64,000 bases of DNA from Vicinamibacterales bacterium (GCA_041394705.1 JAWKHS010000025.1:6157-70156); one strand, 5' to 3'. Counted from the first letter of the stretch, positions 6,965 through 27,420 are shown. A program made the numbers and translations. The notes: generated by a model not told the origin, from the sequence alone.

Positions 6965-8962
<1,998 letters not shown>

Positions 8963-8989
8963 AGGCGGCGATGGTAGCGCAGTCTCGTC

Positions 8990-9013
8990 TTTACCGGCTT
9001 CACCGGTTTGCCG
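8990..9013. repeat. three tandem imperfect 8-9 nt repeats in the OPT/rex divergent intergenic region
   Basis: TTTACCGG-CTTCACCGG-TTTGCCG read directly, followed by TATTCT (9014-9019) 4 nt before the rex ATG. Confidence 0.3.
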
Positions 9014-9023
9014 TATTCTGGCG

Positions 9024-9695: not shown

Positions 9696-9724
9696 CTCGT
9701 TTCCACGCCAGGGAAGGAGAGCCC

Positions 9725-11202: not shown

Positions 11203-12259
11203 CACGGCGTCCGGCGATCGGCGATACGTCCCGCAGCTCGACGGCCTGCGCGCGGTCTCGGTCGCCGCCGTCGCGTACTCCCACTGGCTGCCGGCCTACC
11301 AGGTCGGCGTCCCGTTCGGCGCCGGCGTCCACCTGTTCTTCGTCCTGAGCGGCCTCCTCATCACGCGCATCCTGCTCGGGCTGCGCGACGAGCCGGCCCG
11401 CGGCCGGGCCGTCGTCCGCTTCTACCTGCGCCGGGCGCTGCGCCTGTTTCCGGCGTTCTACACCGTGCTGGGGTTGGCGTGGCTCGCCGGGGTGCCGCTC
11501 GTGGCCGCCACGTGGCCCTGGCACGCGGCGTATCTGTCGAACGTCTACATCGCCAGGCAGGCGGCGTGGCAGGGCCACCTGAGTCACTTCTGGTCCCTGG
11601 CGGTCGAGGAGCAGTTCTACCTCGTCTGGCCGTGGCTCGTGGTCTGGGCGCCGGCGCGATGGCTCGGACCGATCTTCGTCGCGACCGTCGCCGCCGGACC
11701 GCTGGCCAGGACGGCCGCAGCCGCGCGCGGATTGAGCGAGCCGTTCTGGGCGCTGGTCCCGGCAGGCAGCGCCGATTCGCTGGGCGCCGGCGCGCTCGTC
11801 GCCTGGACGCTCTGGGCCCCGCGCACTCGCGACCGCGCGCGACCGATCTGGGGGTGGGCGTGCGTCGCGGGCCTCGGCCTGTGGCTGGGCATGCGCGTCG
11901 TCGAAGCCGGCGGCTTCCTGCTGCCGGCCGCGGTGGCGGCCTGGCGCCAGGTGGCGCAGGCGGCGGTGTTCGCCTGGATCGTCCACCGCGCGTGGGACGG
12001 CGTCGGCGGCCTGCCCGGGCGGGTGCTCTCGCACCCGGCGGCAATCGCGATCGGCCGCATCAGCTACGGCATCTACCTCGTGCACGCCTTCGCGCCGCTC
12101 GCGCTCGACTCCGGGCTGCAGCGGGCGGGCGTGAGCTGGGCGGCCCCGTGGCCGTCGCCCGCGCGCGCCGCCGCGTCGTGGGTGGTGACGATCGGGCTGG
12201 CCGCGCTCCTGTGGCGCGCCGTCGAAGCCCCGGCGCATCGCCTGAAGTCGAGGCTCTGA
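11192..12259 (+). CDS. acyltransferase family 3 membrane protein
   Basis: 355 aa. LDGLRAVSV and VHLFFVLSGLLI motifs, about 10 TM helices. Overlaps the previous gene by 11 nt. Confidence 0.85.
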   Translation: MATDTASGDRRYVPQLDGLRAVSVAAVAYSHWLPAYQVGVPFGAGVHLFFVLSGLLITRILLGLRDEPARGRAVVRFYLRRALRLFPAFYTVLGLAWLAGVPLVAATWPWHAAYLSNVYIARQAAWQGHLSHFWSLAVEEQFYLVWPWLVVWAPARWLGPIFVATVAAGPLARTAAAARGLSEPFWALVPAGSADSLGAGALVAWTLWAPRTRDRARPIWGWACVAGLGLWLGMRVVEAGGFLLPAAVAAWRQVAQAAVFAWIVHRAWDGVGGLPGRVLSHPAAIAIGRISYGIYLVHAFAPLALDSGLQRAGVSWAAPWPSPARAAASWVVTIGLAALLWRAVEAPAHRLKSRL

Positions 12260-12282: not shown

Positions 12283-13746
12283 TCAGCGCGGCGCCGACGC
12301 CCGTGGGGACCGCGGCTCGCAGACGACGACGTCCCCGCCGCCCAGGGTGCCGGGGAAGCGCCGGACGTCGCGGCAGTCGCGGGTCATCCGCTCGACGAGG
12401 GCCGGGTCGTGCCAGAACTCGATGAGCGTGTGCACGGCCAGCACGTCACGGGCGCCCGCGACCTCGCGCTGCCACGCCTCGTCGGTCTCGGCGCACGGCC
12501 AGGGCCGCTCGAAGTACCGCTGCAGCGGCAGGCAGATCGCGCCGGCGCCCACCACCGTCCGTCCGTTCGCCGACGCCGCGTCGAGCATGGCGAGCGGGGC
12601 CTCGAAGTCCTGCTTCGGCACGGTGGCGTTCCTCGCGAGCGCGGCCGCTGCGCCCGGCGCCAGCGTGAGCAGCAGGGCGACGAGCGCCGCGCCGTAGGCC
12701 GCCGGCGCCCGGCCGCCCAGCCGCCCGGCGATCCCGCGGGCGAGGAGCGACGCGCCGAACGCGACGAAGATCGCCGCCGCGCCCGAGAGGTTGAACACGA
12801 AGCGCGGCCGGATCGGCTGGCCCATCAGCGCCGTCAGCCCGACCGTCGTCACCGCCGGCATCACGAGCAGCCAGACGACGAACGGCCGGGACCGCAGCAG
12901 CGCCAGCCCCCCGGCCACGGCCGACACCACCGCCACGAGCAACCCGAGGACGCCGAAGCCCTCCGTGACCCCGCGGACCAGGTCGCCGGCCGCGCGGCCG
13001 GCCGTCGCCACTTTCGCGGCCTGGGGCGGCGCCTTCTCTGCGAAGGTCGCGAGGAGCGCCGGCACGTACGGCGCGTAGGTGACGGCAATGAGGCCGATCG
13101 TGACGGCCCACATCACGGCGAGGCGCGACGGCGCGTAGCGCCGGGCCTCCCGCGCGCCGAACACCCACGCCCCGGCGACCGTCAGGACATGGGCGACCAG
13201 CACGAACGCCATCGTCAGGTGCGTGTAGACCCCAGCCACGGCGCACGCCACGTACGCGGCTTCGATCCGCCGGTCGTGCCGCTCCGCGAGGCGCAGCAGG
13301 AGCGCGGTCGAGAGCAGCGTGAACGTCGCGAGCATCGTGTACCCGCGCGCGTTCTGCGAAAACCACACGTGGTGGCTCGACGTGGCCACGAGCACGGCCG
13401 CGGCCAGCGCCTCGGTCCTCGAGAGGAGCAGCCGTCCGGCGTCCCACACCGTCCAGACGGCGACGACGCCGAAGACGACGGCCGGCAGGCGCAAGGCCCA
13501 GGGCGACTCGCCGAAGGCGCCGATCGAGGCGTGGGAAAGCACGCTGTAGAGGGGATGCTGGTTGACGCCGGGAAAGTCGGTGAGGATCGTGGCCAGCGGC
13601 TGCCGGACCGAGATGACGAGCGTCGCGATCTCGTCGTACCAGAGCTGCGCGTCCAGCCCCGGCAGGCGCAGCAGCGCCGCGATGGCCAGCACCATGGCCA
13701 CCGCGACCGCGAACGGGCCCTCCGGCTCGTCAGTCCTCGACGACAT
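12283..13746 (-). CDS. polytopic GT-C glycosyltransferase, ArnT/PMT-like
   Basis: ATG 13746 inside track ORF 12283..14040; the remainder overlaps the upstream gene. 487 aa with TM-rich N-terminal two thirds and a soluble C-terminal domain. Overlaps the upstream stop by 17 nt. An internal alternative start is possible. Confidence 0.78.
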   Translation of the reverse strand: MSSRTDEPEGPFAVAVAMVLAIAALLRLPGLDAQLWYDEIATLVISVRQPLATILTDFPGVNQHPLYSVLSHASIGAFGESPWALRLPAVVFGVVAVWTVWDAGRLLLSRTEALAAAVLVATSSHHVWFSQNARGYTMLATFTLLSTALLLRLAERHDRRIEAAYVACAVAGVYTHLTMAFVLVAHVLTVAGAWVFGAREARRYAPSRLAVMWAVTIGLIAVTYAPYVPALLATFAEKAPPQAAKVATAGRAAGDLVRGVTEGFGVLGLLVAVVSAVAGGLALLRSRPFVVWLLVMPAVTTVGLTALMGQPIRPRFVFNLSGAAAIFVAFGASLLARGIAGRLGGRAPAAYGAALVALLLTLAPGAAAALARNATVPKQDFEAPLAMLDAASANGRTVVGAGAICLPLQRYFERPWPCAETDEAWQREVAGARDVLAVHTLIEFWHDPALVERMTRDCRDVRRFPGTLGGGDVVVCEPRSPRASAPR

Positions 13747-15154
13747 TCGACTCGAAGGTCGTCCGGGCCGCGGCCCATGCCGCGCGATCGAGGTCGCCGG
13801 ACGGCCGCAGGCACTCGGCGAGCGCGTAGGCCATGGCCATCGTGTGGTGCGTGTTGTCGTGCACGAAGAGGCCCTGGCGGCCGAAGGTGACGAGACCGTC
13901 CAGGCGGGACACCCATGCGTCGAGACCGTCGAAGGCCTGGCGGTAGCCCTCGGTGTACAGGGGATACGCGAACGGCAGCCGTTCGACGTGGACGCCCGCC
14001 ACCGGGGGCAGCGGGCCCAGACCGGCCGCATCGATGTCACGGCGGAACAGGTCGAGGAGGCCCGTGTCGGACATCGACCACTCCTCGCCCTGGAAGGCGC
14101 ACGGCAGCTCCGCGCACAGCACGGTGCGGCCTGGACGCTCGACCAGCCCGTAACGTTTCGGCTCGGACATCCGGCTGATGCGGATGTGCGACTCGGGGAA
14201 GTAGTGCGCGTCGAACTCCGTGAAGTAGTCGGCTTCCAGCGTCACGTAGACGAGCACCATCGCGCGGTATCCCAGACCCGCGGTGGCCTGGAGCGGCGGC
14301 GCCTCGCCCGTGCCCTCGACGAGGCGTGCCAGCACCGGCAGCGGGATGGTCGAGAGCACCTGGCGCGACGGAAACCGCCGCTCCTGGCCGTCCACGACCG
14401 CCGTCACCCCGGTGATGCGGTGGCCGTCGCCCGTCACCGCGCGCACCTCGGCCTGCAGCACCACCTCGGCGCCCGCGCCCGTCGCGGCCGCAGCGAACGC
14501 ATCGGCAATCTGTCCGAAGCCGCGCCGCGGATAGAAGAAGCGGCCGGCGCCCGGCGGTTTCAGGCCGGGCACGGCGCCCAGCACGCGCCGGACCATCTTG
14601 CCCAGCGACGAGTTGGCGACGCGGCGCCGCGCCTGCTCCGCGTCGAGCGCGTCCGGCGGCAGGCCCCAGAGCTTCTGCGCGTAGGGGAAATAGAACTCGC
14701 GGCAGATGGTCTTGCCGAGGCCGCGCTCGAGGAGCGATGCGAAGGTCGGCGGGTCCGCGGCGGGCGCGAAGCGCTTCGTGAGGGCGTCGCCGACGACGCC
14801 GAGGGCGAAGGCCGGCGGCAGGCGGAGCGCCAGGTCGAGAGGCTTGAGCGGGAAGTGGACCCAGCGGCCCTGGAGCCGGATGCGGCCGTGGCGCGGACGA
14901 TCGAGGAGGTCGGCGCCGAGCAGCGTCTTGATGTCGGCGAGGAGCGCCGGCGCGCAACTGGGGTGCAGCCGATGGCTCCCGAAGTCCACGGGGATGCCGT
15001 CGAGGACGAAGCTGCCGGCGTTGCCGCCGACGCGGGTGCCGCGCTCGAGCACGGTCACCGCGCCCCAGCCCTGGCGCGCGAGCTGGTAGGCGGCGGCGAG
15101 GCCGGCGGGACCTCCGCCGAGGATCACGATGGGATGACGGGAACGGTCGGTCAT
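13730..15154 (-). CDS. FAD/NAD(P)-binding oxidoreductase (Glf-like), paralogue of 237..1709
   Basis: ATG 15154. 474 aa. IVILGGGPAGLAAAYQ, YPRRGFGQIADA, AYPLYTEGYRQ and FGRQGLFVHDNTHHTM align block by block with the first flavoprotein. Confidence 0.88.
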   Translation of the reverse strand: MTDRSRHPIVILGGGPAGLAAAYQLARQGWGAVTVLERGTRVGGNAGSFVLDGIPVDFGSHRLHPSCAPALLADIKTLLGADLLDRPRHGRIRLQGRWVHFPLKPLDLALRLPPAFALGVVGDALTKRFAPAADPPTFASLLERGLGKTICREFYFPYAQKLWGLPPDALDAEQARRRVANSSLGKMVRRVLGAVPGLKPPGAGRFFYPRRGFGQIADAFAAAATGAGAEVVLQAEVRAVTGDGHRITGVTAVVDGQERRFPSRQVLSTIPLPVLARLVEGTGEAPPLQATAGLGYRAMVLVYVTLEADYFTEFDAHYFPESHIRISRMSEPKRYGLVERPGRTVLCAELPCAFQGEEWSMSDTGLLDLFRRDIDAAGLGPLPPVAGVHVERLPFAYPLYTEGYRQAFDGLDAWVSRLDGLVTFGRQGLFVHDNTHHTMAMAYALAECLRPSGDLDRAAWAAARTTFESNVVED

Positions 15155-16083
15155 GGACGCTGGGGCGTGGACGCCAGGCGCGCGCGGGTCACGCCGAGCG
15201 CGCTGCCGACGGCCAGGCCGAGAAGCCCGCTGGCGATCAGCACGCCCTGCCACAACAGGCCGGCGGCGAACACCAGGGCGCTCGGGGCGCCGAAGGGGGA
15301 GAGCAGCGACACCAGCGCCGCTTCACGCACGCCGATGCCCCCGAGGCTGATCGGCAGGATCGCGACGATCTTCGAGAGCGGCCACGCGACGAACCACGGC
15401 GCCACGCCGACATCGAGGCCGAGATCCCGCGCGAGCCAGACGTTGGTCAGCACGAAGGCCGACTGCACGGTGGCGGTGACGGCCACCGCGGCGCCGATGG
15501 CGCCGGCCCGGTCCCGGACGTGGCCGGCCAGCCGCGCGAGCGTCGCGCCCAGGCTGGCGCCGCGCCGGCGTGCCAGCACGACGAGACCGCCCGCGAGCGC
15601 GGCGGCGGCGACGGCGCCGGCGGCCAGGAGCGTCCAGCGCACGCGGACGTCGGCCGTGCGCAGGGCGGGCGGAAGCCCGGCCACGAGGGCGCCGACGGCG
15701 ATGAGGGCGCCGAGCGTGGCGGTGTCGATCAGGCGGTCGAGGACGCTGGCGACGGTCGCCGAGGTGCCGTTCACGCCGTGCGGCAGCAGGTAGGTGGCGC
15801 GCACCACGTCGCCCCCGGCCACCCCCGGCAGGCCCAGGTTGGCGACGAGGCCGGCGAAGTGGGCCCGGAGGCAGAGCCCGAGCGTCGCCTGCGGATCCTG
15901 GAGCAGCCAGCGGTATTTCGCGGCGTTCAGCGCATGTCCGGCCAGGAAGACGGCGAGGCTCGCCACCCAGACGGCGCCGCTCACCTCGGCGAACGCCTCG
16001 CGAAGGCCGGAGGCCGAGGCCACCGAGACCAGCACCACGACGACGGACACCGAGACGGCCGCCCGGACGACCCAGCGCAGCAT
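15151..16083 (-). CDS. UPF0104 / lysylphosphatidylglycerol-synthase-TM-region-like membrane protein (flippase-like)
   Basis: ATG 16083. 310 aa, about 8 TM helices, LPISLGGIGVREA signature. Stop overlaps the next start (ATGA at 15151-15154). Confidence 0.78.
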   Translation of the reverse strand: MLRWVVRAAVSVSVVVVLVSVASASGLREAFAEVSGAVWVASLAVFLAGHALNAAKYRWLLQDPQATLGLCLRAHFAGLVANLGLPGVAGGDVVRATYLLPHGVNGTSATVASVLDRLIDTATLGALIAVGALVAGLPPALRTADVRVRWTLLAAGAVAAAALAGGLVVLARRRGASLGATLARLAGHVRDRAGAIGAAVAVTATVQSAFVLTNVWLARDLGLDVGVAPWFVAWPLSKIVAILPISLGGIGVREAALVSLLSPFGAPSALVFAAGLLWQGVLIASGLLGLAVGSALGVTRARLASTPQRP

Positions 16084-16088
16084 GCCGA

Positions 16089-17048
16089 TCAGGCCTGCGG
16101 CCCGCGCGTGAGCTGGAGGCGCGCGATCATGTCCGCGAGCAGGCCGACGGACCACACCACGATGGCCGACAGGAAGGCCATGACCGCCGTTTCCGAGAGG
16201 TTCATCAGGTAGATGTCCTGCGCGAGCTTGGCGATCCCGATCGCGAAGAGGACGGCCCCGACCGGCAGGAAGACCTTCAGCGGGTTGAAGAGCACGATGG
16301 CCCGCACCACGAGCAGGATGAAGTTGCCGAAGTCCGACGGCCGGATCTTCGACCGGCCCGTTCGCACGGCGTAGTCGATGGGCTCGTAGATCACCTCGTA
16401 GCCGTTGGCCAGCATCGCCATCGTGATGGTGCTCGTGAACGAGAAGCCCATGGGCAGCAGCGGCAGGAAGTGCAGCAGGACGGACCGCCGCATGATGCGC
16501 TGCCCGGAGTTGAGGTCCGGGATGCGGCGGCCCACCAGGTAGCTGGCCAGCCGGTTCAAGAACCACTTCGGTGGGCGCCGTACCCAGCTGACGCCGGCCG
16601 ACGACAGCGGTCGCGAGCCGACCACCATGTCGGCCGTGGCCATGTGCGCGAAGAGGCGGGGAATCGCTTCCGGCGGGTAGGTGCAGTCGGCGTCGATGAT
16701 GAGGACGCAGTCGGCCTTTGTGCCGAGGATGCCCGTCTTCAGGGCCGCGCCGTAGCCCTTGTTCACCGGGTGCGCGACCACGCGGGCGCCGGCGGCGCGG
16801 GCCTCGGCCGCGGTGCGATCGGCGGACCCGTCATCGACCACGACGAGCTCGGACCGGCAGGCCATGCCCGACAGCACCGTCTGCACCCGCTCGACGGTCG
16901 ATCGGATGCCGCCTTCCTCATTGAAGGCGGGGATGATGACGGCCAGGTCTGGCGGTGGGGCCGGGGCGGCGATCGGTGCGGCGTGTCCCGCGACGGCGGC
17001 GTCCGACGACGCGCCGGCCGGCGTCCGCAGGGTGTCGACCGTGCTCAT
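16089..17048 (-). CDS. polyprenyl-phosphate glycosyltransferase (GT2; GtrB/ArnC/DPM-synthase-like)
   Basis: ATG 17048. 319 aa. VIIPAFNEE, VVVDDGSADRT, NKGYGAALKTG, IIDADCTY, plus two C-terminal TM helices as in GtrB/ArnC-type enzymes. Confidence 0.88.
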   Translation of the reverse strand: MSTVDTLRTPAGASSDAAVAGHAAPIAAPAPPPDLAVIIPAFNEEGGIRSTVERVQTVLSGMACRSELVVVDDGSADRTAAEARAAGARVVAHPVNKGYGAALKTGILGTKADCVLIIDADCTYPPEAIPRLFAHMATADMVVGSRPLSSAGVSWVRRPPKWFLNRLASYLVGRRIPDLNSGQRIMRRSVLLHFLPLLPMGFSFTSTITMAMLANGYEVIYEPIDYAVRTGRSKIRPSDFGNFILLVVRAIVLFNPLKVFLPVGAVLFAIGIAKLAQDIYLMNLSETAVMAFLSAIVVWSVGLLADMIARLQLTRGPQA

Positions 17049-17485
17049 CGGCGGTCCGCCCGTCGTGGACGTGCGGCCGGCCGGTCGATGGCGCGTCCCA
17101 TCCCTGGTCCTTCCTCGAATATGGCTCGATACTCTCGGTCGTCGCCGCACGGCGCCCCGGCCGCGCCGTCGCTGGGTGCGGCGCCGCCTCGTGGCCGTCG
17201 GGGCCGGGCGATGCGCATCGGAACGGGGATCGTACCACAGGGGCCCCGTGCAATCGTGGGCGCGCGGTCAGGAAAGTCCCGTCGAATCGCGCGTGCGAGG
17301 CTCGTTCGTCGATGCCCTTCCCGGCAGCGCCGCGCGTTGGTGCGCCGAGGTGTGCCGGACGAGCGGATGGTCGAGGCGGCGGACCCGCGGGCGCAGCCGC
17401 CCGTGTCGGCCTCGAGGGCGACCGGAGCGGAACGCACCCGTTGTACGATGCTGTCGGCCGACCTGGCGTCGCCGAGGCTCCTCTG

Positions 17486-18916
17486 ATGACACACCGCGTC
17501 CGCTCGCCGCTGCTCCTCGCCCTCCTCGCGGTGCCGATCGCCGTCATGCTGGGTTCGGCCTTCCGCAACCAGCTGACCGAGGTGCGCATCACCGTCGATC
17601 CGACCCGCCAGTTCCAGACCATTCACGGGTGGGAGACGGTCGCGCAGGCCTCGGTCAACGAGCTCGCGAAGTACGACAACCGGCAGGAAGTGCTCGACGA
17701 GCTGTTCGACAAGGCCGTGGAGTTCGGCCTGACGCGGCTTCGACTGGGCGTGCCGGCGTCGATCGAGAACGTCCGGGACTTCAAGGCGGAGCTCGCGGCC
17801 GGCCGGATCAGCCGCGAGGAGGAACGCTGCGCCCGCTACTCGACGGTCAACGACAACGACGATCCCTTCGTGCTCGACTCCAGCCGGTTCATCTGGTCGC
17901 ACCTGGACTCGCAGGTGCGGGACGTCGTGCTGCCGCTGGCCAGCCGCCTCGAGGCCCGCGGCGAGAAGCTGTGGGTGAACGTCCAGTACACGGCGTTCAC
18001 CGACCTGCTGTGCCGGGGCTACGGCTACGATCACGATCGGCCCGAGGAGTACGCCGAGTTCGCGCTCGCCGTCTACCAGCATCTGCGCGACACGTTCGGC
18101 ATCGTGCCAGATTCGTGGGAGATCATGCTCGAGCCCGACAACACGCAGGTCTGGACGCCGGAGCGGCTGGCGGAGGCGACGGCCGCCGCGTCGCGCCGGC
18201 TCGCCGACGCCGGCTTCACCCCGTCGTTCGTGGCCACGGGCGTGACCAGCGCGTCCAACGCGCTGCCCTACTTCGCGCCCCTCTGGGCGCGGACCGAGCT
18301 CCGCCCGTTCGTGCGGGAGCTGTCCTATCACCGCTACATCGGCGCCACCGCCGAGACCATCGCCGCCATCGGCGACTTCTCCCGCGCGGAGGGCGTCCCG
18401 ACGGCCATGCTCGAGAAACTCAACGCCGGCGCCGACGAGCTGTACCAGGACCTGACCGCCGGGAACGTCTCGGCCTGGCAGCAGTACGCGCTGTCGTGGC
18501 CGGGCGTGGACAACGGCGACCACTACTTCATCCTCGACCCGTCGAAGCCCCCAGGCGAGCGCGCGCTGCTCTCGTCGTCGGGCTGGTACCTGCGCCAATA
18601 CTTCCGGGCCCTCAGGCCCGGGGCGGTGCGGATCGGGGCGTCGAGCACCGACAGCGGGTTCAGACCGGTGGCGGCCGTGAACACCGGCGATCGCACCGCG
18701 GTCGTCGTGCGGGCGATGCGCGCGGGCCTCCTGACGCTGGCCGGCCTGCCGCCCGGCACCTACGTGACCTCGTGCTGGACCGATCGGGCGAGCTGGGACC
18801 GCGAACCCGACCCGTGCGCGGGGACCGTGGACGTGGACGACCGCGGCGAGGCCGTCGTGATGATGCCCGACGCCGGCGTCGTCTCCGCCGTGCGCACCGA
18901 GAATGTCGAGCCCTGA
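17486..18916 (+). CDS. membrane-anchored or secreted glycoside hydrolase (TIM-barrel clan GH-A-like, GH30/GH5-like)
   Basis: ATG 17486 inside track ORF 16955..18916. 476 aa. N-terminal anchor SPLLLALLAVPIAVML. WEIMLEPDN resembles the NEP acid/base motif. The family assignment is tentative. Confidence 0.65.
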   Translation: MTHRVRSPLLLALLAVPIAVMLGSAFRNQLTEVRITVDPTRQFQTIHGWETVAQASVNELAKYDNRQEVLDELFDKAVEFGLTRLRLGVPASIENVRDFKAELAAGRISREEERCARYSTVNDNDDPFVLDSSRFIWSHLDSQVRDVVLPLASRLEARGEKLWVNVQYTAFTDLLCRGYGYDHDRPEEYAEFALAVYQHLRDTFGIVPDSWEIMLEPDNTQVWTPERLAEATAAASRRLADAGFTPSFVATGVTSASNALPYFAPLWARTELRPFVRELSYHRYIGATAETIAAIGDFSRAEGVPTAMLEKLNAGADELYQDLTAGNVSAWQQYALSWPGVDNGDHYFILDPSKPPGERALLSSSGWYLRQYFRALRPGAVRIGASSTDSGFRPVAAVNTGDRTAVVVRAMRAGLLTLAGLPPGTYVTSCWTDRASWDREPDPCAGTVDVDDRGEAVVMMPDAGVVSAVRTENVEP

Positions 18917-20384
18917 TCCCTGGCTGGGGCGGCGCCTCGCCGTCAGCCTGTGGATCGTCCTGGCGCTGCACTTCGCGACGAACATCTCCCGCGAGCTCTA
19001 TCCGGCGCTGACCCTGGCCGAGCACGGGACGCTGGCCGTCGACGAGTACGTCGGCCTCCATCCGGACATCTTCGTAGCCCCGTCGGGCCGCGCCTTCATC
19101 AACAACAACCCGGGCGCGTCGGTCGTGGCGGCGCTGCCGCTGATCGTCGCGCGTCCGCTCCTGTCGGCGGCGGAAGCGGCGGGAAAGCGGCGGCAGGCCG
19201 CCGCGCACGGACAGGTGTCGGCCGTCTACGACGACCCGCGGCCCAACCGCCAGCGCTTCTTCCGCGAGGCCCGCGAGCGAGGGCTCGACCTGAAGTTCGG
19301 CGTCGCGGCGGCGGCCTCGGCCGTCGGCGTGATGGCGCCGCTGACCGCGCTGCTCGGCTGGCTGATGTTCCGTGTCCTCCGCGACGTGGGGATGGCGCCG
19401 GCGCGGGCCGCGATGTACGGCGCGTTGAGCGTGGTCGCCACGCCCGTGTTCTTCAGGGCGGCGTATCTGAACCACAACCATCTCCTGGGGATCGCCGTGT
19501 TCGCGGCCTTCGTGCTGCTCTGGCGGGGCCGCGCGACGACGGCGACGCTGGCCGGGGCGGGCGCCCTGGCCGGGGCCGGCGTGACGATGGACTACAGCGG
19601 CGTCGTGCCCGCCGCCTTTCTCGGCTGGTGGGCGCTCGTCGAGACGCGGGCCGCCGCGGAGGAGCCGCCGGGCGCGGGCCGCCTCGTCCGTCGCGCGGGG
19701 GCGTTCGGCGCCGGCGCGGCCGCGCCGCTGGCGGCGCTCCTGGCCTATCAGTGGTGGGCGTTCGGCGGCCCGCTCACGCTCCCGCAATCGCTCATGCCGC
19801 CGACCGAGTTCAGCGTCTACGGCTACAGCGGCATGAGCCTGCCGCAGGCCGATCTCATCGCGGCCAACCTGTTCGACCCGCGCTTCGGGCTGTTCGCCTT
19901 CGCGCCCCTCCTGCTCCTGGCCGTCCCGGGCGCCTGGATGATGCCGGCCTCGTGGCTCACGCGCCGCCAGACCGCCGCCATTGCCGCTCTCTTCGCGGGA
20001 TTCCTCCTGTTCTGCAGCGCGAACCAGTTCGCGCGCCTGCAGTGGAACACGGGCCTTCGCTACCTGTTGCCGCTCGTCCCGTTCTGTTTCCTCTACGCCG
20101 TGCCGGTGCTGGAACGGCTGCCGGCGCTCCTGCGCCGGTGGCTGCTCGTCCTGGCCGTGACGGAAGCCTGGGCGCTGGCGATGGCCCGCGAGAGCGTGCC
20201 CGAGTCGCTCCTGCGGATCTTCGTGGCGGGTCCGGAGTTGCCGTGGCTGACCGTCATCGGCAAGACCGCGCCGCAGTACGTGCCGTTCCTCCAGGGGGCG
20301 CCCTCGTCGCTCCCGTTCCTCTTCCTCGGGGCGGCGGCCGTCGCGGCCCTGTGGTGGCCGCGCCGCTCGGCCGAAACCCAGTAG
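18903..20384 (+). CDS. polytopic membrane protein, possible GT-C-type glycosyltransferase or polymerase (uncharacterised)
   Basis: 493 aa, more than 10 hydrophobic helices. Start overlaps the hydrolase gene by 14 nt. No family recognised with certainty. Confidence 0.65.
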   Translation: MSSPDPWLGRRLAVSLWIVLALHFATNISRELYPALTLAEHGTLAVDEYVGLHPDIFVAPSGRAFINNNPGASVVAALPLIVARPLLSAAEAAGKRRQAAAHGQVSAVYDDPRPNRQRFFREARERGLDLKFGVAAAASAVGVMAPLTALLGWLMFRVLRDVGMAPARAAMYGALSVVATPVFFRAAYLNHNHLLGIAVFAAFVLLWRGRATTATLAGAGALAGAGVTMDYSGVVPAAFLGWWALVETRAAAEEPPGAGRLVRRAGAFGAGAAAPLAALLAYQWWAFGGPLTLPQSLMPPTEFSVYGYSGMSLPQADLIAANLFDPRFGLFAFAPLLLLAVPGAWMMPASWLTRRQTAAIAALFAGFLLFCSANQFARLQWNTGLRYLLPLVPFCFLYAVPVLERLPALLRRWLLVLAVTEAWALAMARESVPESLLRIFVAGPELPWLTVIGKTAPQYVPFLQGAPSSLPFLFLGAAAVAALWWPRRSAETQ

Positions 20385-20483
20385 TCACCCGATGCCACCG
20401 ACCCGCCCCCGCGCGCTCCCCGCCCGTTCACGGGCCTGCACGTCCTGGCCGTCCGCCCGCGGTCGCCGCGACGGAGCCGGTCG

Positions 20484-21752
20484 ATGAGCGCCCACACCCG
20501 GCGCGCGGCCTGCCGTGCCTGCGGCACCCCGTTCGACGCGCCGTTCCTGGCGCTCGGACCGATGCCGCTCGCCAACAACCTCCCGCGATCGCCGGAGGAG
20601 TTGGCGGCGCAGGCACGCTATCCGCTCGACGTCTGCGTGTGCCGGACCTGCTCGCTCGTGCAGACGCCGGACGTCATCGACCCGCGCGTGCTGTTCGCGC
20701 ACTACGTCTACCTGACCGGGATGTCCGAGACGATGCGCGTCCACAACCGCGCGTACGCCGCGCACGTGGTCGGGCTCACGGGCGCGGGCGCCGGCGATCT
20801 CGTGGTGGACATCGCCAGCAACGACGGCAGCCTCCTGCTCGAGTTCCAGCCGCACGGCGTGCGGACGCTCGGCATCGAGCCGGCCGCCAACGTCGCCGAC
20901 ATCGCGCGGGGCCGGGGCGTGGACACGGTGACGCGGTTCTTCGACGACACCGCCGGCCGCGACCTGCGCGACGAGCATGGCCCCGCGGCGGCCGTGCTGG
21001 CCAACAACGTCCTGGCGCACGTGGACGACCCGGTCGGCTTCCTCCGCGGCGCGGGGCGCCTCATCGGCCCGCGCGGCCTGGTCGTCATCGAGGCGCCGTA
21101 TGTCGCCGAGATGCTCGACCGGCTCGAATACGACACCATCTATCACGAGCACCTCTCGTACTTCTCGATCGGCGCGCTGGCGCGGCTCGCGGACGAAGCG
21201 GGACTCGTGCTCGTTCGCGTGGACCACGTGCCCATCCACGGCGGGTCGCTCCGGGCGCACTTCGGCCATCCGGCGGCATGGGCCGGACACGGCACCACCG
21301 TGTCCGACGCCGTGGCCCGGGAGCGCGCCCAGGGACTCGCGGACGTGGGCAGGTACGCGCGGTTCGCGGAGGCCGTGCACGCGCACCGCCAGGCGCTCCG
21401 GGCCCTCGTCGGCGACCTGGCGGCCGCCGGACACGTCGTGGCCGGCTACGGTGCGCCGGCCAAGGCGACGACGCTCCTGAACTTCTGCGGCCTCGGGCCG
21501 GAGGCGATCGCGTTCACCGTGGACCGCAACCCGCTCAAGGTGGGCGCCTTCGTGCCGGGCGTCGGCGTGCCGATCCTCGACGTGGACGCGCTGGCCAGCC
21601 GGCGTCCCGATTACGCGCTGATCTTCCCGTGGAACCTGGCCGCCGAGATCGCGGCCCAGCAGCAGGCCTATCGCGAGCAGGGCGGGCAGTTCCTGCTGCC
21701 GCTGCCGGAGCCGCGGCCGCTGGCCATCGCGGCGGAGGGGAGGGCCCAGTGA
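20484..21752 (+). CDS. NDP-hexose C-methyltransferase (TylCIII-like; zinc-ribbon + class I MT + C-methyltransferase C-domain)
   Basis: 422 aa. N-terminal CRACG...CRTCSLVQ zinc ribbon, SAM motif VVDIASNDGSLL, NNVLAHVDDP, C-terminal GYGAPAKATTLLNF block. Confidence 0.85.
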   Translation: MSAHTRRAACRACGTPFDAPFLALGPMPLANNLPRSPEELAAQARYPLDVCVCRTCSLVQTPDVIDPRVLFAHYVYLTGMSETMRVHNRAYAAHVVGLTGAGAGDLVVDIASNDGSLLLEFQPHGVRTLGIEPAANVADIARGRGVDTVTRFFDDTAGRDLRDEHGPAAAVLANNVLAHVDDPVGFLRGAGRLIGPRGLVVIEAPYVAEMLDRLEYDTIYHEHLSYFSIGALARLADEAGLVLVRVDHVPIHGGSLRAHFGHPAAWAGHGTTVSDAVARERAQGLADVGRYARFAEAVHAHRQALRALVGDLAAAGHVVAGYGAPAKATTLLNFCGLGPEAIAFTVDRNPLKVGAFVPGVGVPILDVDALASRRPDYALIFPWNLAAEIAAQQQAYREQGGQFLLPLPEPRPLAIAAEGRAQ

Positions 21753-22516
21753 AGGTCGTGATCCTGGCTGGAGGCAAGGGGACGCGGATCGCGGAGGAGA
21801 CCGTCACCCGTCCGAAGCCCATGGTGGAGATCGGCGGCCGGCCGATCCTGTGGCACATCATGAGCATCTACGCCGCGCACGGGCTGAACGACTTCGTCGT
21901 CGCGTGCGGGTATCGCGGCGAGCTCATCAAGGAGTACTTCAACAACTTCTTCGTGCACCACAGCGACTTCGCGATCAACCTGAAGGACGGCACCCGCGAC
22001 GTCCTGAACGCGGGCGCGCCGGACTGGCGCGTGACCGTCGTCGACACGGGTCTCGACACGATGACGGGCGGCCGCGTGCGCCGGCTCCGGCCCCTGCTGC
22101 AGGACGGCACGTTCATGGTCACCTACGGCGACGGACTCGGCGCCGTCGATCTCCGGGCGTTGCTGGCGTTCCACCGCGCCCACGGGCGCCTCGCGACGGT
22201 CACGGCGGTCCGGCCCCCGGCGCGGTTCGGCAATCTGGCCATCGATGGCGATCGGGTGCGCGAGTTCGCGGAGAAGCCCCAGACCGGCGAGGGCTGGATC
22301 AACGGCGGGTTCTTCGTCTTCGAACCGGGCCTGTTCGACTACATCGCCGCCGACGCGACGTCGCTCGAGCAGGAGCCCCTCGAACGCGTCGCCGCCGACG
22401 GCCAGCTGATGGCCTACAAGCACGAGGGCTTCTGGCAGCCCATGGACACGGTCCGGGAGCGGCAGCTGCTCGAGTCCCTGTGGGCCAGCGGAGGTGCGCC
22501 GTGGAAAGTGTGGTGA
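21749..22516 (+). CDS. rfbF: glucose-1-phosphate cytidylyltransferase
   Basis: GTG 21749 overlaps the previous stop (GTGA). 255 aa. VILAGGKGTRI, KPMVEIGGRPILWHIM, GGFFVFEP. Confidence 0.94.
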   Translation: MKVVILAGGKGTRIAEETVTRPKPMVEIGGRPILWHIMSIYAAHGLNDFVVACGYRGELIKEYFNNFFVHHSDFAINLKDGTRDVLNAGAPDWRVTVVDTGLDTMTGGRVRRLRPLLQDGTFMVTYGDGLGAVDLRALLAFHRAHGRLATVTAVRPPARFGNLAIDGDRVREFAEKPQTGEGWINGGFFVFEPGLFDYIAADATSLEQEPLERVAADGQLMAYKHEGFWQPMDTVRERQLLESLWASGGAPWKVW

Positions 22517-23520
22517 AGTCCTGGGAGGGGCGTCGGGTCTTCGTGACCGGCGCCACGGGCCTGCTCGGGGCCTGGCTGGTGGACGAGCTCGTGCGGCGCG
22601 GCGCCGAGGTCGTCTGCCTCGTCCGCGACTGGCTGCCCGACACCCACTTCGTCCGGGCCGACCTGGCGGCGCGCACCACCCTGGTGCACGGCGACCTCGT
22701 CGATCATCCGCTGCTCGTGCGCGCGCTCAACGAGCACGAGATCGACAGCGTGTTCCACCTGGGCGCGCAGACGATCGTGGGGGTCGCGTCACGCCATCCG
22801 CTGTCCACGTTCGAGTCGAACGTCCGCGGCACCTGGAACCTGCTCGAGGCGGCCCGGGCGTGCGGCCCGCGCATCGCGCGCGTCGTCGTGGCGTCGAGCG
22901 ACAAGGCGTACGGACAACAGGAGGTCCTGCCGTACACGGAGGCGACCGCGCTCGAAGGCCGCTTCCCGTACGACGTCTCGAAGTCGTGCGCGGACCTCAT
23001 CGCGCTGTCCTACTTCCACACCTACCGCCTGCCGGTCGCGATCACGCGGTGCGGCAACCTGTTCGGAGGCGGCGACCTCAACTTCAACCGCCTCGTGCCT
23101 GGCACCATCCGGTCCGCCCTTCGGGGCGAATCGCCCGTCATCCGCAGCGACGGGCGCTACGTTCGGGAGTACTTCTACGTCCGCGACGCCGTGGACGCCT
23201 ACCTCGCGCTGGCCGAGCGGGTGCCCGACCTGGCGGGGCATGCCTTCAATTTCGGCAGCGGCGAGACCTACACGGTGCTCGAGATGGTCGAGAAGATCCT
23301 GGCCGTGATGGGGAAGACGGCCCTCGCGCCCACGGTGCTGAACCAGGCGGTCCATGAGATCCCCGAGCAGGCCCTCGACTGCGGCAAGGCGAAGGCCGTG
23401 CTCGGCTGGGAGCCCACGTTCAGGCTGGAGGCGGGGCTTCGCGAGACCGTTGCCTGGTACGAGACCTACCTGGCCCAGGGACATCCCGTTCGTCCCGCCG
23501 CCGGGCCCGTGGACGCGTAA
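22510..23520 (+). CDS. rfbG: CDP-glucose 4,6-dehydratase
   Basis: GTG 22510 (alternatives 22501 and 22513) overlaps the rfbF stop. 336 aa. VFVTGATGLLGAWL, YDVSKSCAD (YxxxK). Confidence 0.92.
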   Translation: MVKSWEGRRVFVTGATGLLGAWLVDELVRRGAEVVCLVRDWLPDTHFVRADLAARTTLVHGDLVDHPLLVRALNEHEIDSVFHLGAQTIVGVASRHPLSTFESNVRGTWNLLEAARACGPRIARVVVASSDKAYGQQEVLPYTEATALEGRFPYDVSKSCADLIALSYFHTYRLPVAITRCGNLFGGGDLNFNRLVPGTIRSALRGESPVIRSDGRYVREYFYVRDAVDAYLALAERVPDLAGHAFNFGSGETYTVLEMVEKILAVMGKTALAPTVLNQAVHEIPEQALDCGKAKAVLGWEPTFRLEAGLRETVAWYETYLAQGHPVRPAAGPVDA

Positions 23521-23584
23521 CGGGCACGCCGGGCCGTCGGTCGCCGACGGCCGGCGCGTGATAGGGTTCCGGGCGGAGGCATCG

Positions 23585-24028
23585 ATGGAACGTCGTGACG
23601 TACTCAAGGCCGGGGCGGCCATCGTCGTGGGCCGCGTGGCGGGAGGCGACCGTGCCCTGGCGCAGGCGCCCGCGCGCCCCGCGTCCCAGACCAGGTCCCT
23701 CGGCATCCACCCGCTCAGCCCCGCCCTCGACGGCTGGCAGGGCACGATTCTGGAAGTGACGTATCCGCCGGGGCAGGTCGGCGCGTCGCACCAGCATCCC
23801 GGGCCGACCTTCGGTTACGTGGTGCGGGGCAGCATCCGCTGGGCGATCAACGGCGAGCCGGCGAAGGTGCTCGGGCCCGGCCAGTCGTTCTACGAGCCCA
23901 TGGGGGCCGTGCACTCGACCTCGGCCAATGCCAGTGAGACCGAGCCTGCCGTCATCGCGGTGGTGATCCTCGGCAAGCCGGGCGAGCCGCTGTCGAAGCC
24001 CGCGACGGCGAAGCCGGGCGGCGAGTAG
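23585..24028 (+). CDS. TAT-signal cupin-domain protein
   Basis: ATG 23585, 5 nt after GGAGG. 147 aa. Twin-arginine MERRDVLKAGAA. Cupin metal motif SHQHPGP...FYEPMGAVH. Confidence 0.8.
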   Translation: MERRDVLKAGAAIVVGRVAGGDRALAQAPARPASQTRSLGIHPLSPALDGWQGTILEVTYPPGQVGASHQHPGPTFGYVVRGSIRWAINGEPAKVLGPGQSFYEPMGAVHSTSANASETEPAVIAVVILGKPGEPLSKPATAKPGGE

Positions 24029-24047
24029 CGCGGGAGCGGTCCGTGCG

Positions 24048-24860
24048 CTAGAACGTGCGCGCGGTGGGCACGGGCCACCACCGCACCTGCACCTTACCGA
24101 CGATGTAGCGCTTCGGGACGAACCCGAAGTGGCGGCTGTCCTGGCTGTTGTTGCGGTGGTCGCCCATCACGAAGTAGTGGCCGTGCGGGACCACCTGCGG
24201 CCCCCAGTCGTCGTGACTCTGGTACTCGGCCGGCACGTATTCGCTCGGCATCGGGACGTCGTTGACGTAGACGCGGCCGTCGACGATTCGGACCTGATCG
24301 TCTTCCTCGGCGATGACCCGCTTGACGAACATCTTGTCGGGATCGAGCGGGTAGTAGAGCATCACGATGTCACCGCGGCGCGGCGACGAGATCCGGTAGA
24401 TCAGCTTGTTGACGATGAGCCGATCCTGATCGTCCAGCGTGGGAGCCATGCTGAGCCCCTCGACGCGCGCCACCTGGAAGACGAACGTCACGATGACGAC
24501 GGCGTAGAGCGCGGCGGACGCCAGCGTCTTCATCCACGCCCAGAACTCCTCGTGCCACGCGGCCAGCCGATCGGCGCGGGAAGGCGGCGCGTCCGCGGGC
24601 ACGAAGCCGGGCCCGGCCGGGGCCGCCGGAGGGGCGCCGAAGCCGCTGAGCGGCACCGCCGTGAACGTCTGTGGGCCAGGGTCCGGCGCGGGCGTGGACG
24701 CGGTCCGCATGCCCGGGAATGCCCCGGTCGGCGCGTCGAGCGGGAACGCGTGCGTGGTGCCCGCGGCCTGCGGGTCGCCGCCGTCAATCCCGGCGCGGGC
24801 CGATGGAGCGTCGTCGAGGGGAGCGGGGAGGTCGGCTGAGTCGCGGTCGGACGGCTCCAC
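24048..24860 (-). CDS. lepB: signal peptidase I with long Pro/Ala-rich N-terminal extension
   Basis: 270 aa. GLSMAPTL (Ser), VKRVIA (Lys), GDHRNNSQDSRHFG. GTG 24860 lies 9 nt after AGGAG. Confidence 0.9.
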   Translation of the reverse strand: MEPSDRDSADLPAPLDDAPSARAGIDGGDPQAAGTTHAFPLDAPTGAFPGMRTASTPAPDPGPQTFTAVPLSGFGAPPAAPAGPGFVPADAPPSRADRLAAWHEEFWAWMKTLASAALYAVVIVTFVFQVARVEGLSMAPTLDDQDRLIVNKLIYRISSPRRGDIVMLYYPLDPDKMFVKRVIAEEDDQVRIVDGRVYVNDVPMPSEYVPAEYQSHDDWGPQVVPHGHYFVMGDHRNNSQDSRHFGFVPKRYIVGKVQVRWWPVPTARTF

Positions 24861-25548: not shown

Positions 25549-27420
25549 ATGCCTCGCGCCCCATTTCTCGACGCCCTGGCGTCCCGCGTGCTCGTCTGCG
25601 ACGGCGCGATGGGTACGATGCTGTACGGCAAGGGCGTCTTCATCAACCGCTGCTTCGAGTCGCTGAACCTCTCGCAGCCCGACCTCGTGCTCGACGTGCA
25701 CCGGCAGTACGTGGCCGCCGGGGCCGACGTGATCGAGACCAACACGTTCGGCGCGTCGCGGCTCAAGCTTCGCGCGTTCGGGATGGGCGACCAGGTGCGC
25801 GAGGTGAACCTCGCCGGCGCCCGGCTGGCCCGCGAGGCCGCCGGCGACGACGCCTACGTGGCCGGGGCCATCGGGCCGCTGGGCGTGCGCATCGAGCCCT
25901 GGGGCAAGACGGGCGTCGACGAGGCCCGCGACTACTTCCGCGAACAGGCGGCCGCCCGCGCCGAGGGCGGCGTGGACCTGCTGATCCTCGAGACCTTCCG
26001 CGACTGGCACGAGGCCGCCGCCGCCGTCGATGCCGCGCGCGAGGCGTGCGACCTGCCGATCGTCGCGCAGGTCACGTCGGAAGACGATGGCAACAGCCTG
26101 GACGGCACGCCGCCGGAGCAGTTCGGCCCGGCGCTCGTCGCGCGCGGCGCGCGCGTGGTCGGCGTCAACTGCAGCGTGGGGCCCGCGCCGATGCTCGACA
26201 CGATCGAGCGCCTCGCCGATGCCTGCGGTGGTACCCCGCTCTCCGCCCAGCCCAACGCCGGCAAGCCGCGCGACATCGAGGGGCGGAACATCTACCTCTG
26301 CTCGCCCGAGTACATGGCGTCCTACGCGCGGCGCTTCATCACCAGCGGCGTGCGCCTGGTCGGCGGGTGCTGCGGCACGACTCCGGAGCACATCCGCCAG
26401 ATCGCCCTCGCGGTGAAGCAACTCGCGCCCGACGACGGCGCGCGCCGCGGAACGACGCGCCACCGGGCCGTCACCGTCGAGACGCCGCTGGCGAAGCCGC
26501 CGGTGCCGCTCGCCGAGCGGTCCGCCGTCGCTGCCAAGCTGGCGTCGGGCGCGTTCGTCGTCGGCGTCGAGCTGGCGCCGCCGCGCGGCCACGCGCCGGC
26601 CGACGCGCTGGACGAGGCGCGCCTGGCGGCCTCGCGCGGCGCGGATCTCGTCCTGGTGTCCGACACACCGCGTGGCGGCGCGCGCCTCGGCGCCCTGGCG
26701 ATGGCCGTCCTCATCCGCCAGCAGTGCGGGATCGAGCCCGTGCTCCAGTACTCCTGCCGCGACCGCAACCTGCTCGGGATCCAGTCCGACCTGCTCGGGG
26801 CGCACGCGATGGGCGTGCACAACATCGTCGGCATCACGGGCGACGTCAGGCGGATCGGCGACTACCCGGATGCGACGGCCGTGTTCGACGTGGACTCGGT
26901 CGGCCTGACCCACGTGCTGAGCCGCCTCAATCATGGCCTCGACATCGCGGGACAGCCGATCGGCGCGCCCACGGCGCTGCTCGCCGGCGTGATGGTCAAC
27001 CCGGCGGCGGCCGACCTGGACCGCGAGCTGCGGCGGTTCGAGTACAAGGTGGAGGCGGGGGCCGAGTTCGTCCTCACGCGGCCGCTCTTCGACGTCGCCG
27101 CCTTCGAGCGTTTCCTGGGACGGATTGCCCACCTCAAGGTGCCGGTGCTGGCAGGGCTGTGGCCGTTCGACTCGGTGATGAACGCCGAGTTCATGGCCAA
27201 CGAGGTGCCCGACGTGGTGGTACCGGACGCGCTCGTCGCCAGGATGCGCCAGGCGGCCAGCCCGGAGGCCGCGCGCCTCGAAGGCATTCGCATCGCACAG
27301 GAGCTCCTGGGCGCGCTCCGGCCGATGGCCGCGGGCGTCGTCGTATCGACGCCGGACGGCCGCGTCGGCCGGGCGCTCGAGGTGGTGCACGGCGTCGTGA
27401 GGGCGGCCCCGGCAAGCTGA
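25549..27420 (+). CDS. bifunctional homocysteine S-methyltransferase / methylenetetrahydrofolate reductase (YitJ-like)
   Basis: 623 aa. N-terminal Hcy-binding domain (LVCDGAMGT, ETNTFGA, GGCCGTTPEHI). C-terminal MTHFR-like domain. Confidence 0.9.
   Translation: MPRAPFLDALASRVLVCDGAMGTMLYGKGVFINRCFESLNLSQPDLVLDVHRQYVAAGADVIETNTFGASRLKLRAFGMGDQVREVNLAGARLAREAAGDDAYVAGAIGPLGVRIEPWGKTGVDEARDYFREQAAARAEGGVDLLILETFRDWHEAAAAVDAAREACDLPIVAQVTSEDDGNSLDGTPPEQFGPALVARGARVVGVNCSVGPAPMLDTIERLADACGGTPLSAQPNAGKPRDIEGRNIYLCSPEYMASYARRFITSGVRLVGGCCGTTPEHIRQIALAVKQLAPDDGARRGTTRHRAVTVETPLAKPPVPLAERSAVAAKLASGAFVVGVELAPPRGHAPADALDEARLAASRGADLVLVSDTPRGGARLGALAMAVLIRQQCGIEPVLQYSCRDRNLLGIQSDLLGAHAMGVHNIVGITGDVRRIGDYPDATAVFDVDSVGLTHVLSRLNHGLDIAGQPIGAPTALLAGVMVNPAAADLDRELRRFEYKVEAGAEFVLTRPLFDVAAFERFLGRIAHLKVPVLAGLWPFDSVMNAEFMANEVPDVVVPDALVARMRQAASPEAARLEGIRIAQELLGALRPMAAGVVVSTPDGRVGRALEVVHGVVRAAPAS

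Follow-up and report, generated by a model that had tools for sequence, protein, structure and literature searches.

A C-methyltransferase gene beside rfbF and an rfbG-like gene in a Vicinamibacterales bacterium suggests a CDP-activated C-methyl-6-deoxyhexose pathway of the cereose/cillose type

Introduction

Which sugar is made when a gene for a nucleoside diphosphate (NDP)-hexose C-methyltransferase runs directly into rfbF and an rfbG-like gene? This question is raised by a gene trio of a Vicinamibacterales bacterium (GCA_041394705.1), located in a 64,000-nucleotide stretch of DNA (JAWKHS010000025.1:6157-70156) that is referred to below as the window. The window lies on contig C25 of a 6.25-Mb genome assembly comprising 45 contigs and 99.6% complete. 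A first-pass annotation, made from this sequence alone, had proposed that the three genes serve the C-methylation of a 4-keto-6-deoxyhexose linked to cytidine diphosphate (CDP). Branched-chain C-methyl sugars are rare and are mostly known from antibiotics, Coxiella lipopolysaccharide, and Bacillus spores.

Here we follow up this proposal through gene identity, gene order across phyla, and a search of the rest of the genome. We consider it probable, on sequence evidence, that the trio encodes the first three steps of a pathway of the type leading to CDP-cereose and CDP-cillose, and that the set is completed by an extended short-chain dehydrogenase/reductase (SDR) encoded on a different contig, C18.

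Results

Identity and Arrangement of the Three Genes

Because the window has a G+C content of ~72%, genes were placed by third-position G+C. Matches in Pfam, NCBIfam, and PDB bear out the first-pass reading of the trio as a TylCIII-type C-methyltransferase, then RfbF, then RfbG, the last of these being divergent (Table 1). The methyltransferase, P0001, has the full three-domain architecture of NDP-hexose C-methyltransferases, i.e., a zinc ribbon (PF08421, residues 10–71, 62.7 bits against a cut-off of 31.3), a class I methyltransferase domain (PF13489, residues 104–245, 71.5 bits), and the C-terminal domain PF08484 (Methyltransf_14, residues 250–408, 177.9 bits against a cut-off of 23.5). Its top PDB matches extend over the whole length of the protein, with E values ranging from 1e-88 to 1e-74: MtmC (4rv9, the best of them), 5t64, and TcaB9 (3ndi). 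The entry 5t64 is titled 'Sugar 3-C-methyl transferase' and is presumably KijD1. In an alignment with 14 relatives that are 51–79% identical, all nine residues inspected were invariant, namely the zinc cysteines C10, C13, C53, and C56, together with Y74, H179, Y220, E222, and H223. The latter five align by HMMER with Y76, H181, Y222, E224, and H225 of TcaB9 (native numbering; the PDB chain index is 2 higher), which we take to be the residues targeted by mutagenesis in that enzyme. P0001 is hence predicted to catalyze C-methylation of an NDP-4-keto sugar in an S-adenosylmethionine (SAM)-dependent manner.

The second protein, P0002, matches the RfbF equivalog model TIGR02623 with 385.1 bits (cut-off 300.25) over model positions 1–255 of 255. 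The best family for the third, P0003, is TIGR02622, ahead of the dTDP-glucose (deoxythymidine diphosphate-glucose) dehydratase model (205.1 versus 176.5 bits), and its top PDB matches, 1rkx and 1wvg, are the two solved CDP-glucose 4,6-dehydratases (from Yersinia and Salmonella). The SSDKAY motif of P0003 aligns with TSDKCY of 1rkx, and YDVSK with YSNSK. Since the catalytic triplet S130-D131-K132 and the YxxxK residues Y154/K158 are invariant across 37 homologues from the gene cassettes described below, we read P0003 as a putative working dehydratase that belongs to a shorter, divergent subfamily and is not a canonical RfbG by the curated cut-off.

The genes overlap at both junctions, as the first-pass annotation had noted. 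The methyltransferase stop codon and the GTG start of rfbF share the sequence GTGA (4 nt), and the rfbF stop overlaps the GTG at 22510 by 7 nt, or that at 22513 by 4 nt should the latter be the start. Because stop and start codons overlap, we infer that the trio may be translationally coupled. No hydrophobic or transmembrane segments were predicted in P0001, P0002, or P0003, and a promoter and terminator scan of positions 20200–24100 gave nothing useful.

Conservation of the Gene Order

We used a pattern scan of one genome per species to collect 80 loci, the flanks of which were searched with the window proteins; the core set comprises the 52 loci with a methyltransferase that is at least 40% identical. 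An RfbF homologue was present in the flank of 47 of these 52 loci. RfbG-like SDRs occurred in 37, at 57–85% identity and always adjoining RfbF. Where enough sequence was available, the gene directly after that of the methyltransferase encoded RfbF in 30 of 48 loci, and in 24 of 44 the methyltransferase-RfbF-RfbG-like trio was contiguous. Source phyla of the loci are Acidobacteriota, Gemmatimonadota, Chloroflexota, Planctomycetota, Calditrichota, Bacillota (Heliobacteriaceae), Pseudomonadota, and Verrucomicrobiota; the contiguous order was seen in the first seven of these. The gene order, on which the first-pass annotation had staked its reading, is therefore conserved, and because it recurs across phyla it is, judged from the genomes compared, not a matter of chance. 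No RmlA or RmlB was detected in the flanks of the 52 loci with the queries used.

In a quick maximum-likelihood tree with midpoint rooting, the methyltransferase of the window falls inside a well-supported clade of 44 rows. Because this clade mixes phyla and is almost entirely RfbF-linked, it points to horizontal spread of the cassette. The loci nearest to that of the window are from uncultured Acidobacteriota. Taken with the conserved order and the catalytic residues, the 47 RfbF-linked loci support the proposal that a CDP-linked 4-keto-6-deoxyhexose is the predicted substrate for C-methylation.

The survey yielded three further observations. The methyltransferases of L011 (a Blastocatellia metagenome-assembled genome, MAG) and L026 (a Heliomicrobium MAG) are near-identical sisters with branch lengths of 0.08 and 0.06; this likeness despite different assigned phyla reflects either a transfer in the very recent past or the misbinning of one of the MAGs. 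In the closest relative (L001:9266-11036), RfbF and the RfbG-like protein each match in two pieces in different frames, which is probably due to frameshift errors in a long-read MAG, not to pseudogene formation. Lastly, 22 actinomycete genomes (L055–L075 and L079; Streptomyces, Kitasatospora, Streptosporangiaceae, Pseudonocardiaceae, and others) encode a 41–43% identical methyltransferase (at ~8001–9200), directly followed by a full-length nucleotidyltransferase (~9220–10010) that is 33–37% identical to RfbF. These 22 methyltransferases form one well-supported clade (98*), and no RfbG-like gene was found within 8 kb at those loci.

A Larger Cassette and a Candidate Reductase Encoded in Trans

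To describe the wider gene content of the 52 loci, six-frame open reading frames (ORFs) were clustered by all-against-all BLAST and cluster representatives were scanned against Pfam. Three further families recur. A short family 2 glycosyltransferase (GT2) is encoded at 31 loci, in most cases immediately before the methyltransferase gene; 26 loci encode an extended SDR, and 20 a polytopic GT-C protein of ~700 amino acids that weakly resembles PMT_2. The genes commonly follow one another as GT-C, SDR, GT2, methyltransferase, RfbF, RfbG-like (e.g., L002, L005, L009, and L041).

None of the cassette GT-C, SDR, and GT2 genes lies within the window. Contig C18 of the same genome carries all three together, at 45–60% identity to the cassette copies, with a PhyH-like gene between SDR and GT2 (Table 1). 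A PhyH-like gene holds the same position in five other loci (L004, L013, L016, L017, and L035) and suggests an extra hydroxylation or other tailoring of the sugar. In L004, the genes for SDR, PhyH, GT2, RfbF, and the RfbG-like protein are contiguous, which directly links the C25 and C18 halves. In about ten cassette loci, the place between SDR and GT2 is taken by a gene for a B12-binding radical-SAM protein of ~690–780 amino acids (e.g., L008:4797-7130, L017:5084-7159, and L019:2920-4995). The product of this gene, which is found at neither the C25 nor the C18 locus, might add a second methyl group or catalyze a rearrangement.

The separation of the two halves is not an assembly artefact. Each locus lies within its contig, with other genes on either side, and the same separation is seen in L001 (on a 2.2-Mb contig), L077, and the genome G110. 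The genome holds a single copy of the methyltransferase and of the RfbG-like gene and no second close RfbF.

We then examined the distribution of the SDR in 121 genomes sampled from the order, with orthologues defined by E ≤ 1e-40. The methyltransferase family occurs in 31 of these genomes. The C18 SDR is represented in just five, namely G000 (the present genome), G110, G075, G009, and G014, all of which are among the eight whose methyltransferase is at least 48% identical. Both genes share a contig in G009, G014, and G075, and lie on separate contigs in G110, which is of the same genus, as they do in G000. As the sampled genomes are related, these co-occurrence counts are descriptive and do not amount to a statistical test. 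The SDR contains YxxxK and lacks the Asp-Lys/Glu pair of dehydratases. Because within the order it is confined to genomes with a close methyltransferase, we take it as the prime candidate for the missing 4-ketoreductase, for which the first-pass annotation had advised searching elsewhere in the genome.

That annotation had also reported that the window lacks 3-deoxygenation genes of the ddhC/ddhD type and a 4-ketoreductase. In part this stands: tblastn with two extended-SDR queries found no second extended SDR on C25, and a whole-genome search for PF01041 found no DegT/ddhC-type gene on C25 or C18, its four strong matches lying on contigs C4, C5, and C7; ddhD was not searched for separately. 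The sole RmlC gene of the genome belongs to another cluster, on C15, and C5 carries an RmlD-like gene.

Table 1. Genes of the trio, of the adjoining glycan locus, and of the C18 locus. Coordinates are window positions except where contig C18 is named.
Feature	Coordinates	Strand	Product	Family matches and remarks
NDP-hexose C-methyltransferase	20484-21752	+	P0001, 422 aa	TylC3/TcaB9/MtmC family; PF08421 + PF13489 + PF08484
RfbF/DdhA, glucose-1-phosphate cytidylyltransferase	21749-22516	+	P0002, 255 aa	TIGR02623
RfbG-like CDP-glucose 4,6-dehydratase (putative)	22510 (or 22513)-23520	+	P0003, 336 aa	short divergent subfamily
Polytopic membrane protein	18903-20384	+	493 aa	directly upstream of trio; weak NCBIfam match to LA_3751/LA_3752 putative glycosyltransferase
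Signal-anchored protein	17486-18916	+	476 aa	one N-terminal hydrophobic segment
GT2	16089-17150	-		PF00535; two C-terminal transmembrane helices (275-300, 318-345)
LPG_synthase_TM family membrane protein, flippase-like	15151-16566	-		PF03706, 109 bits
Flavin adenine dinucleotide flavoprotein, amine-oxidase/UDP-galactopyranose-mutase-like	13730-15253	-		PF01593 + PF13450; faint GLF match
PMT_2-type GT-C glycosyltransferase	12283-14040	-		PF13231, 41 bits; at least 8 hydrophobic segments
Acyl_transf_3 gene	11192-12259
GT-C, PMT_2-like	C18:127409-129562		717 aa
Extended SDR, candidate 4-ketoreductase	C18:129601-130554			~50% identical to L002 SDR
PhyH-like	C18:130574-131740 (L081:10574-11740)			Fe/2-oxoglutarate dioxygenase family, weak match
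Small soluble GT2	C18:131794-132582			60% identical to L002 GT2

Genomic Neighborhood of the Trio

The trio forms the 3' end of a glycan locus that extends from ~11.2 to 23.5 kb. The 493-amino-acid protein encoded directly upstream has no Pfam match; its protein-atlas neighbors carry PMT or PMT_2 in 10–44% of members, which serves as a lead only. It is probably a GT-C-type glycosyltransferase, and both it and the 717-amino-acid protein of C18 look like PMT_2-type GT-C enzymes. The 476-amino-acid protein matches no Pfam or NCBIfam family and has homologues in five to six cassette loci.

Transcribed divergently from the trio are the genes for the GT2, the LPG_synthase_TM protein, the flavoprotein, and the PMT_2 GT-C. 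The best NCBIfam matches of this GT2, all of them under cut-off, are AglJ, dolichyl-phosphate hexose transferase, PpgS, and ArnC, and the protein looks like a polyprenyl-phosphate sugar synthase; by NCBIfam, the GT2s of the window and of C18 both resemble polyprenyl-phosphate glycosyltransferases. The flavoprotein matches PRK07208-type 'hypothetical protein' models of NCBIfam, also under cut-off. Homologues of the flavoprotein and of the 493-amino-acid protein each lie near the cassette in 11 of the 52 loci, and homologues of the neighboring genes accompany the cassette in Gemmatimonadota, Heliobacteriaceae, Planctomycetota, Calditrichota, and Anaerolineae. A second Glf-like flavoprotein paralogue, 29% identical, is encoded on the minus strand at 336–1598 of the window (C25:6492-7754), within a 555-amino-acid minus-strand ORF at 237–1901.

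Downstream of the trio follow genes for a Tat-exported cupin, LepB, ferredoxin-like NuoI, a homocysteine methyltransferase/methylenetetrahydrofolate reductase (MTHFR) fusion, a small methyltransferase, an M24 peptidase, and Lon. These are unrelated to sugar synthesis and are syntenic in the two closest relatives only. The cupin (23585–24028) was considered as an RmlC-like epimerase or ketoisomerase and rejected: it has its own ribosome-binding site and a twin-arginine leader, which marks it as an exported protein and not a sugar-nucleotide epimerase. The homocysteine S-methyltransferase/MTHFR fusion (25549–27420, plus strand) lies 2 kb downstream of the SAM-dependent methyltransferase; because its synteny extends to the two closest relatives only, a link with the sugar genes is unlikely.

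Discussion

A Proposed Pathway

The gene identities, conserved catalytic residues, gene order, and co-occurrence described above are consistent with the following route. RfbF would convert glucose-1-phosphate and cytidine triphosphate to CDP-D-glucose, from which the RfbG-like SDR would form CDP-4-keto-6-deoxy-D-glucose. The zinc-ribbon methyltransferase would then remove the proton next to the 4-keto group and add a methyl group to the resulting enolate, most likely at C-3, as TcaB9, MtmC, and the Bacillus enzyme do. Finally, the C18 SDR, acting in trans, would reduce the 4-keto group to give a CDP-3-C-methyl-6-deoxy-D-hexose; a D-sugar is expected because no 3,5-epimerase belongs to the set.

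What might follow is suggested by the small soluble GT2 and the GT-C that regularly accompany the set, both being of types that act by way of polyprenyl-phosphate carriers. The GT2 of C18 would probably transfer the sugar to polyprenyl phosphate, after which the lipid-linked sugar would be flipped and used by the GT-C on the outer side of the membrane. The neighbors of the trio in the window, a second GT2/flippase-like/GT-C module and the GT-C-like protein, may act alongside. On this scheme, the cassette of GT-C, SDR, GT2, methyltransferase, RfbF, and RfbG-like protein, found in at least seven phyla and divided here between two loci, would be an undescribed route for loading a CDP-activated C-methyl-6-deoxyhexose onto polyprenyl phosphate, with transfer to an envelope acceptor by the ~700-amino-acid GT-C; we offer this only tentatively and hold it to be somewhat doubtful. 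If it is true, no lipid-carrier donor of a branched-chain sugar would precede this one, and the GT2 would be the first synthase of polyprenyl-phosphate sugars with a CDP-sugar as its donor.

Several points weigh against these interpretations. P0003 scores below the equivalog cut-off of TIGR02622 (205.1 versus 278.45 bits). The methyltransferase is 36% identical to its Bacillus mycoides counterpart, and the Bacillus and Sinorhizobium enzymes sit in the other half of the quick midpoint-rooted tree, where they group with the actinomycete sequences and not with the clade of the window; owing to this distance, nucleotide specificity is not readable from orthology. As the methyltransferase family includes C-5 methyltransferases such as NovU, the C-3 position is likewise not proven. 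The C18 SDR is 24% identical to the Bacillus-type 4-reductase, and the solved structures closest to it are those of epimerases or dehydratases (MoeE5 and 3vps), so that a role as an epimerase is possible. Two genomes of the order (G046 and G084, family f12) encode a 52% identical methyltransferase and no C18-type SDR at E ≤ 1e-40; in these two, the pathway may rely on another reductase. We know of no characterized polyprenyl-phosphate GT2 synthase with a CDP-sugar donor. As a separate observation, G084 has three methyltransferase paralogues.

Alternative Explanations

The alternative that survives best keeps the CDP pathway and changes its outcome: methylation at C-5, as in NovU, or at another carbon, an SDR that acts as an epimerase, or tailoring by the PhyH-like protein would each give a sugar unlike cereose or cillose. 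The epimerase- and dehydratase-type relatives of the SDR fit such an outcome, as do the separation of the methyltransferase clade from the Bacillus enzyme and the genes interposed between SDR and GT2, whether PhyH-like (here and in five loci) or radical-SAM (in about ten others). We nevertheless regard it as unlikely, given that the five residues reportedly probed in the C-3 methyltransferase TcaB9 are all conserved, that the best structural relatives are all 3-C-methyltransferases, and that the 4-keto intermediate needs reducing, the C18 SDR being the only gene that consistently co-occurs with the set.

A second possibility is that the methyltransferase acts on dTDP-4-keto-6-deoxyglucose supplied by the rml genes of the genome, and sits beside rfbF and rfbG since both sugars enter one glycan. 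The methyltransferases of solved structure belong to dTDP-sugar pathways; the window enzyme scores higher against MtmC than against the Bacillus-group enzyme; and rml-like genes do occur on C15 (RmlC) and C5 (RmlD-like). Against this, RfbF is the flanking partner at 47 of 52 loci and directly downstream at 30 of 48, the same flanks yielded no RmlA or RmlB with the queries used, the overlapping start and stop codons point to co-expression of the trio, and a CDP-using member of the family exists in Bacillus cereus. This reading appears very improbable to us. The idea that RfbF and RfbG serve a 3,6-dideoxyhexose pathway (abequose, paratose, tyvelose, or ascarylose) as in Salmonella and Yersinia, with the methyltransferase unrelated, was rejected as barely credible: these are indeed the first two enzymes of that pathway, and CDP-paratose/abequose is the CDP pathway most commonly predicted in a genome survey, but no DegT-type gene lies near the C25 or C18 locus (the four strong genome matches are on C4, C5, and C7) and the conserved partners are the methyltransferase, SDR, and GT2, not E1 and E3.

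The cereose/cillose-type pathway, with the C18 SDR as its reductase, hence remains the reading we favor. This type of pathway is known; what marks the present case is the divergent dehydratase subfamily and the candidate reductase encoded in trans, and its possible novelty lies in the feeding of a branched sugar from a CDP donor into polyprenyl-phosphate/GT-C glycosylation. The results suggest that the CDP version of the pathway is no Bacillus oddity and that it is instead a horizontally shared cassette of abundant, poorly cultured phyla of soil and water. Among the carriers are Acidobacteriota, Gemmatimonadota, Planctomycetota, and Chloroflexota, in which envelope glycans are almost unknown. 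The analysis defines a set of four enzymes, including the in-trans reductase candidate, and predicts polyprenyl phosphate as the carrier on which the sugar would reach a GT-C enzyme.

Comparison With Known Systems

Since such chemistry has been characterized before and annotations of model rhizobia already show the genes side by side, the value of the original finding is modest. The adjacency of the trio has long been visible in databases: on pSymB of Sinorhizobium meliloti, SMb21416-SMb21418 are annotated as ddhA, ddhB, and an NDP-hexose 3-C-methyltransferase. There and at a Labrenzia plasmid locus, the same three gene types are adjacent in cultured bacteria, whereas the order is rfbF-rfbG-(DegT)-methyltransferase, RfbG is of canonical length (356–378 amino acids), and the methyltransferases are 38–40% identical to ours. 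No functional study of either trio was found in the literature searched. The product class is also long known, since Okuda and co-workers reportedly described CDP-vinelose (CDP-6-deoxy-3-C-methyl-2-O-methyl-L-talose) from Azotobacter vinelandii in the 1960s, a compound for which the literature searched gave no match and whose genes have, to our knowledge, never been assigned. This is likewise a CDP-activated 3-C-methyl 6-deoxyhexose, but it is an L-sugar and bears an O-methyl group.

The 3,6-dideoxyhexose pathways of Salmonella and Yersinia (DdhA-D, or RfbF, G, H, and I, with RfbS, RfbJ, and RfbE) share the first two steps and the intermediate CDP-4-keto-6-deoxy-D-glucose. In the present set, a C-methyltransferase takes the place of E1 (ddhC) and E3 (ddhD), the absence of the former resting on the search described above and ddhD having had no search of its own. 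With TylC3, TcaB9, KijD1, and MtmC of the actinomycete mycarose and tetronitrose pathways, P0001 shares the three domains, the four zinc cysteines, and the Tyr/His/Tyr-x-Glu-His residues. Those enzymes belong to antibiotic clusters and act on dTDP-linked 4-keto sugars that are usually 2-deoxy or 3-amino, whereas the window enzyme sits with CDP-glucose enzymes in an envelope-glycan locus.

For the steps beyond the nucleotide sugar, the closest parallels are ArnC/ArnT, GtrA/B/V, and the mycobacterial systems of Ppm1 and GT-C enzymes, which similarly combine a GT2 resembling polyprenyl-phosphate synthases, a polytopic PMT_2-type GT-C, and a flippase-like protein. The known three-component lipid-carrier systems use UDP- or GDP-sugars (uridine or guanosine diphosphate); a CDP-linked C-methyl-deoxyhexose donor would be new, and the GT2 and GT-C matches here are below cut-offs or leads only.

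The nearest relative of the proposed pathway is that of Bacillus cereus, the enzymes of which reportedly yield CDP-3-C-methyl-6-deoxyhexoses. On a B. mycoides plasmid the gene order is rfbF-rfbG-methyltransferase-oxidoreductase, and the products are 49% (RfbF), 32% (RfbG), and 36% (methyltransferase) identical to those of the window, with 24% identity between the oxidoreductase and the C18 SDR. A four-gene operon for CDP-cereose and CDP-cillose is reported from B. cereus ATCC 14579 (Li et al. 2017, J Biol Chem 292:7636). A genome survey counts CDP-cereose and CDP-cillose among the pathways that have an experimental basis, gives both a homologous C4-reductase as the last enzyme, and predicts the cereose/cillose pathway in 81 of its genomes (~0.6%). 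Its profile seeds include the consecutive B. cereus proteins Q81B32 (CDP-glucose 4,6-dehydratase), Q81B31 (C-methyltransferase), and Q81B30 (4-reductase), of which Q81B31 is one of six experimentally characterized nucleotide-sugar C-methyltransferases. Two premises of the first-pass annotation are overtaken by this precedent: that the characterized members of the methyltransferase family act on dTDP-sugars is outdated by the CDP example of B. cereus, and the predicted sugar is less unusual than assumed, given that a pathway of the same logic has been characterized there.

Both the B. cereus operon and the present locus encode a cytidylyltransferase, a CDP-glucose 4,6-dehydratase (putative in our case), and a zinc-ribbon SAM C-methyltransferase together and with no epimerase. 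The two also differ. The methyltransferase gene comes first here, whereas the Bacillus order is rfbF-rfbG-methyltransferase-reductase; the Bacillus operon includes its 4-reductase, an RfbS/RfbJ-like protein of the Q81B30 type, whereas none is adjacent here and the candidate is encoded on C18; and, while cereose decorates the spore glycoprotein BclA in Bacillus, the partners of the trio are GT2 and GT-C genes of membrane glycosylation.

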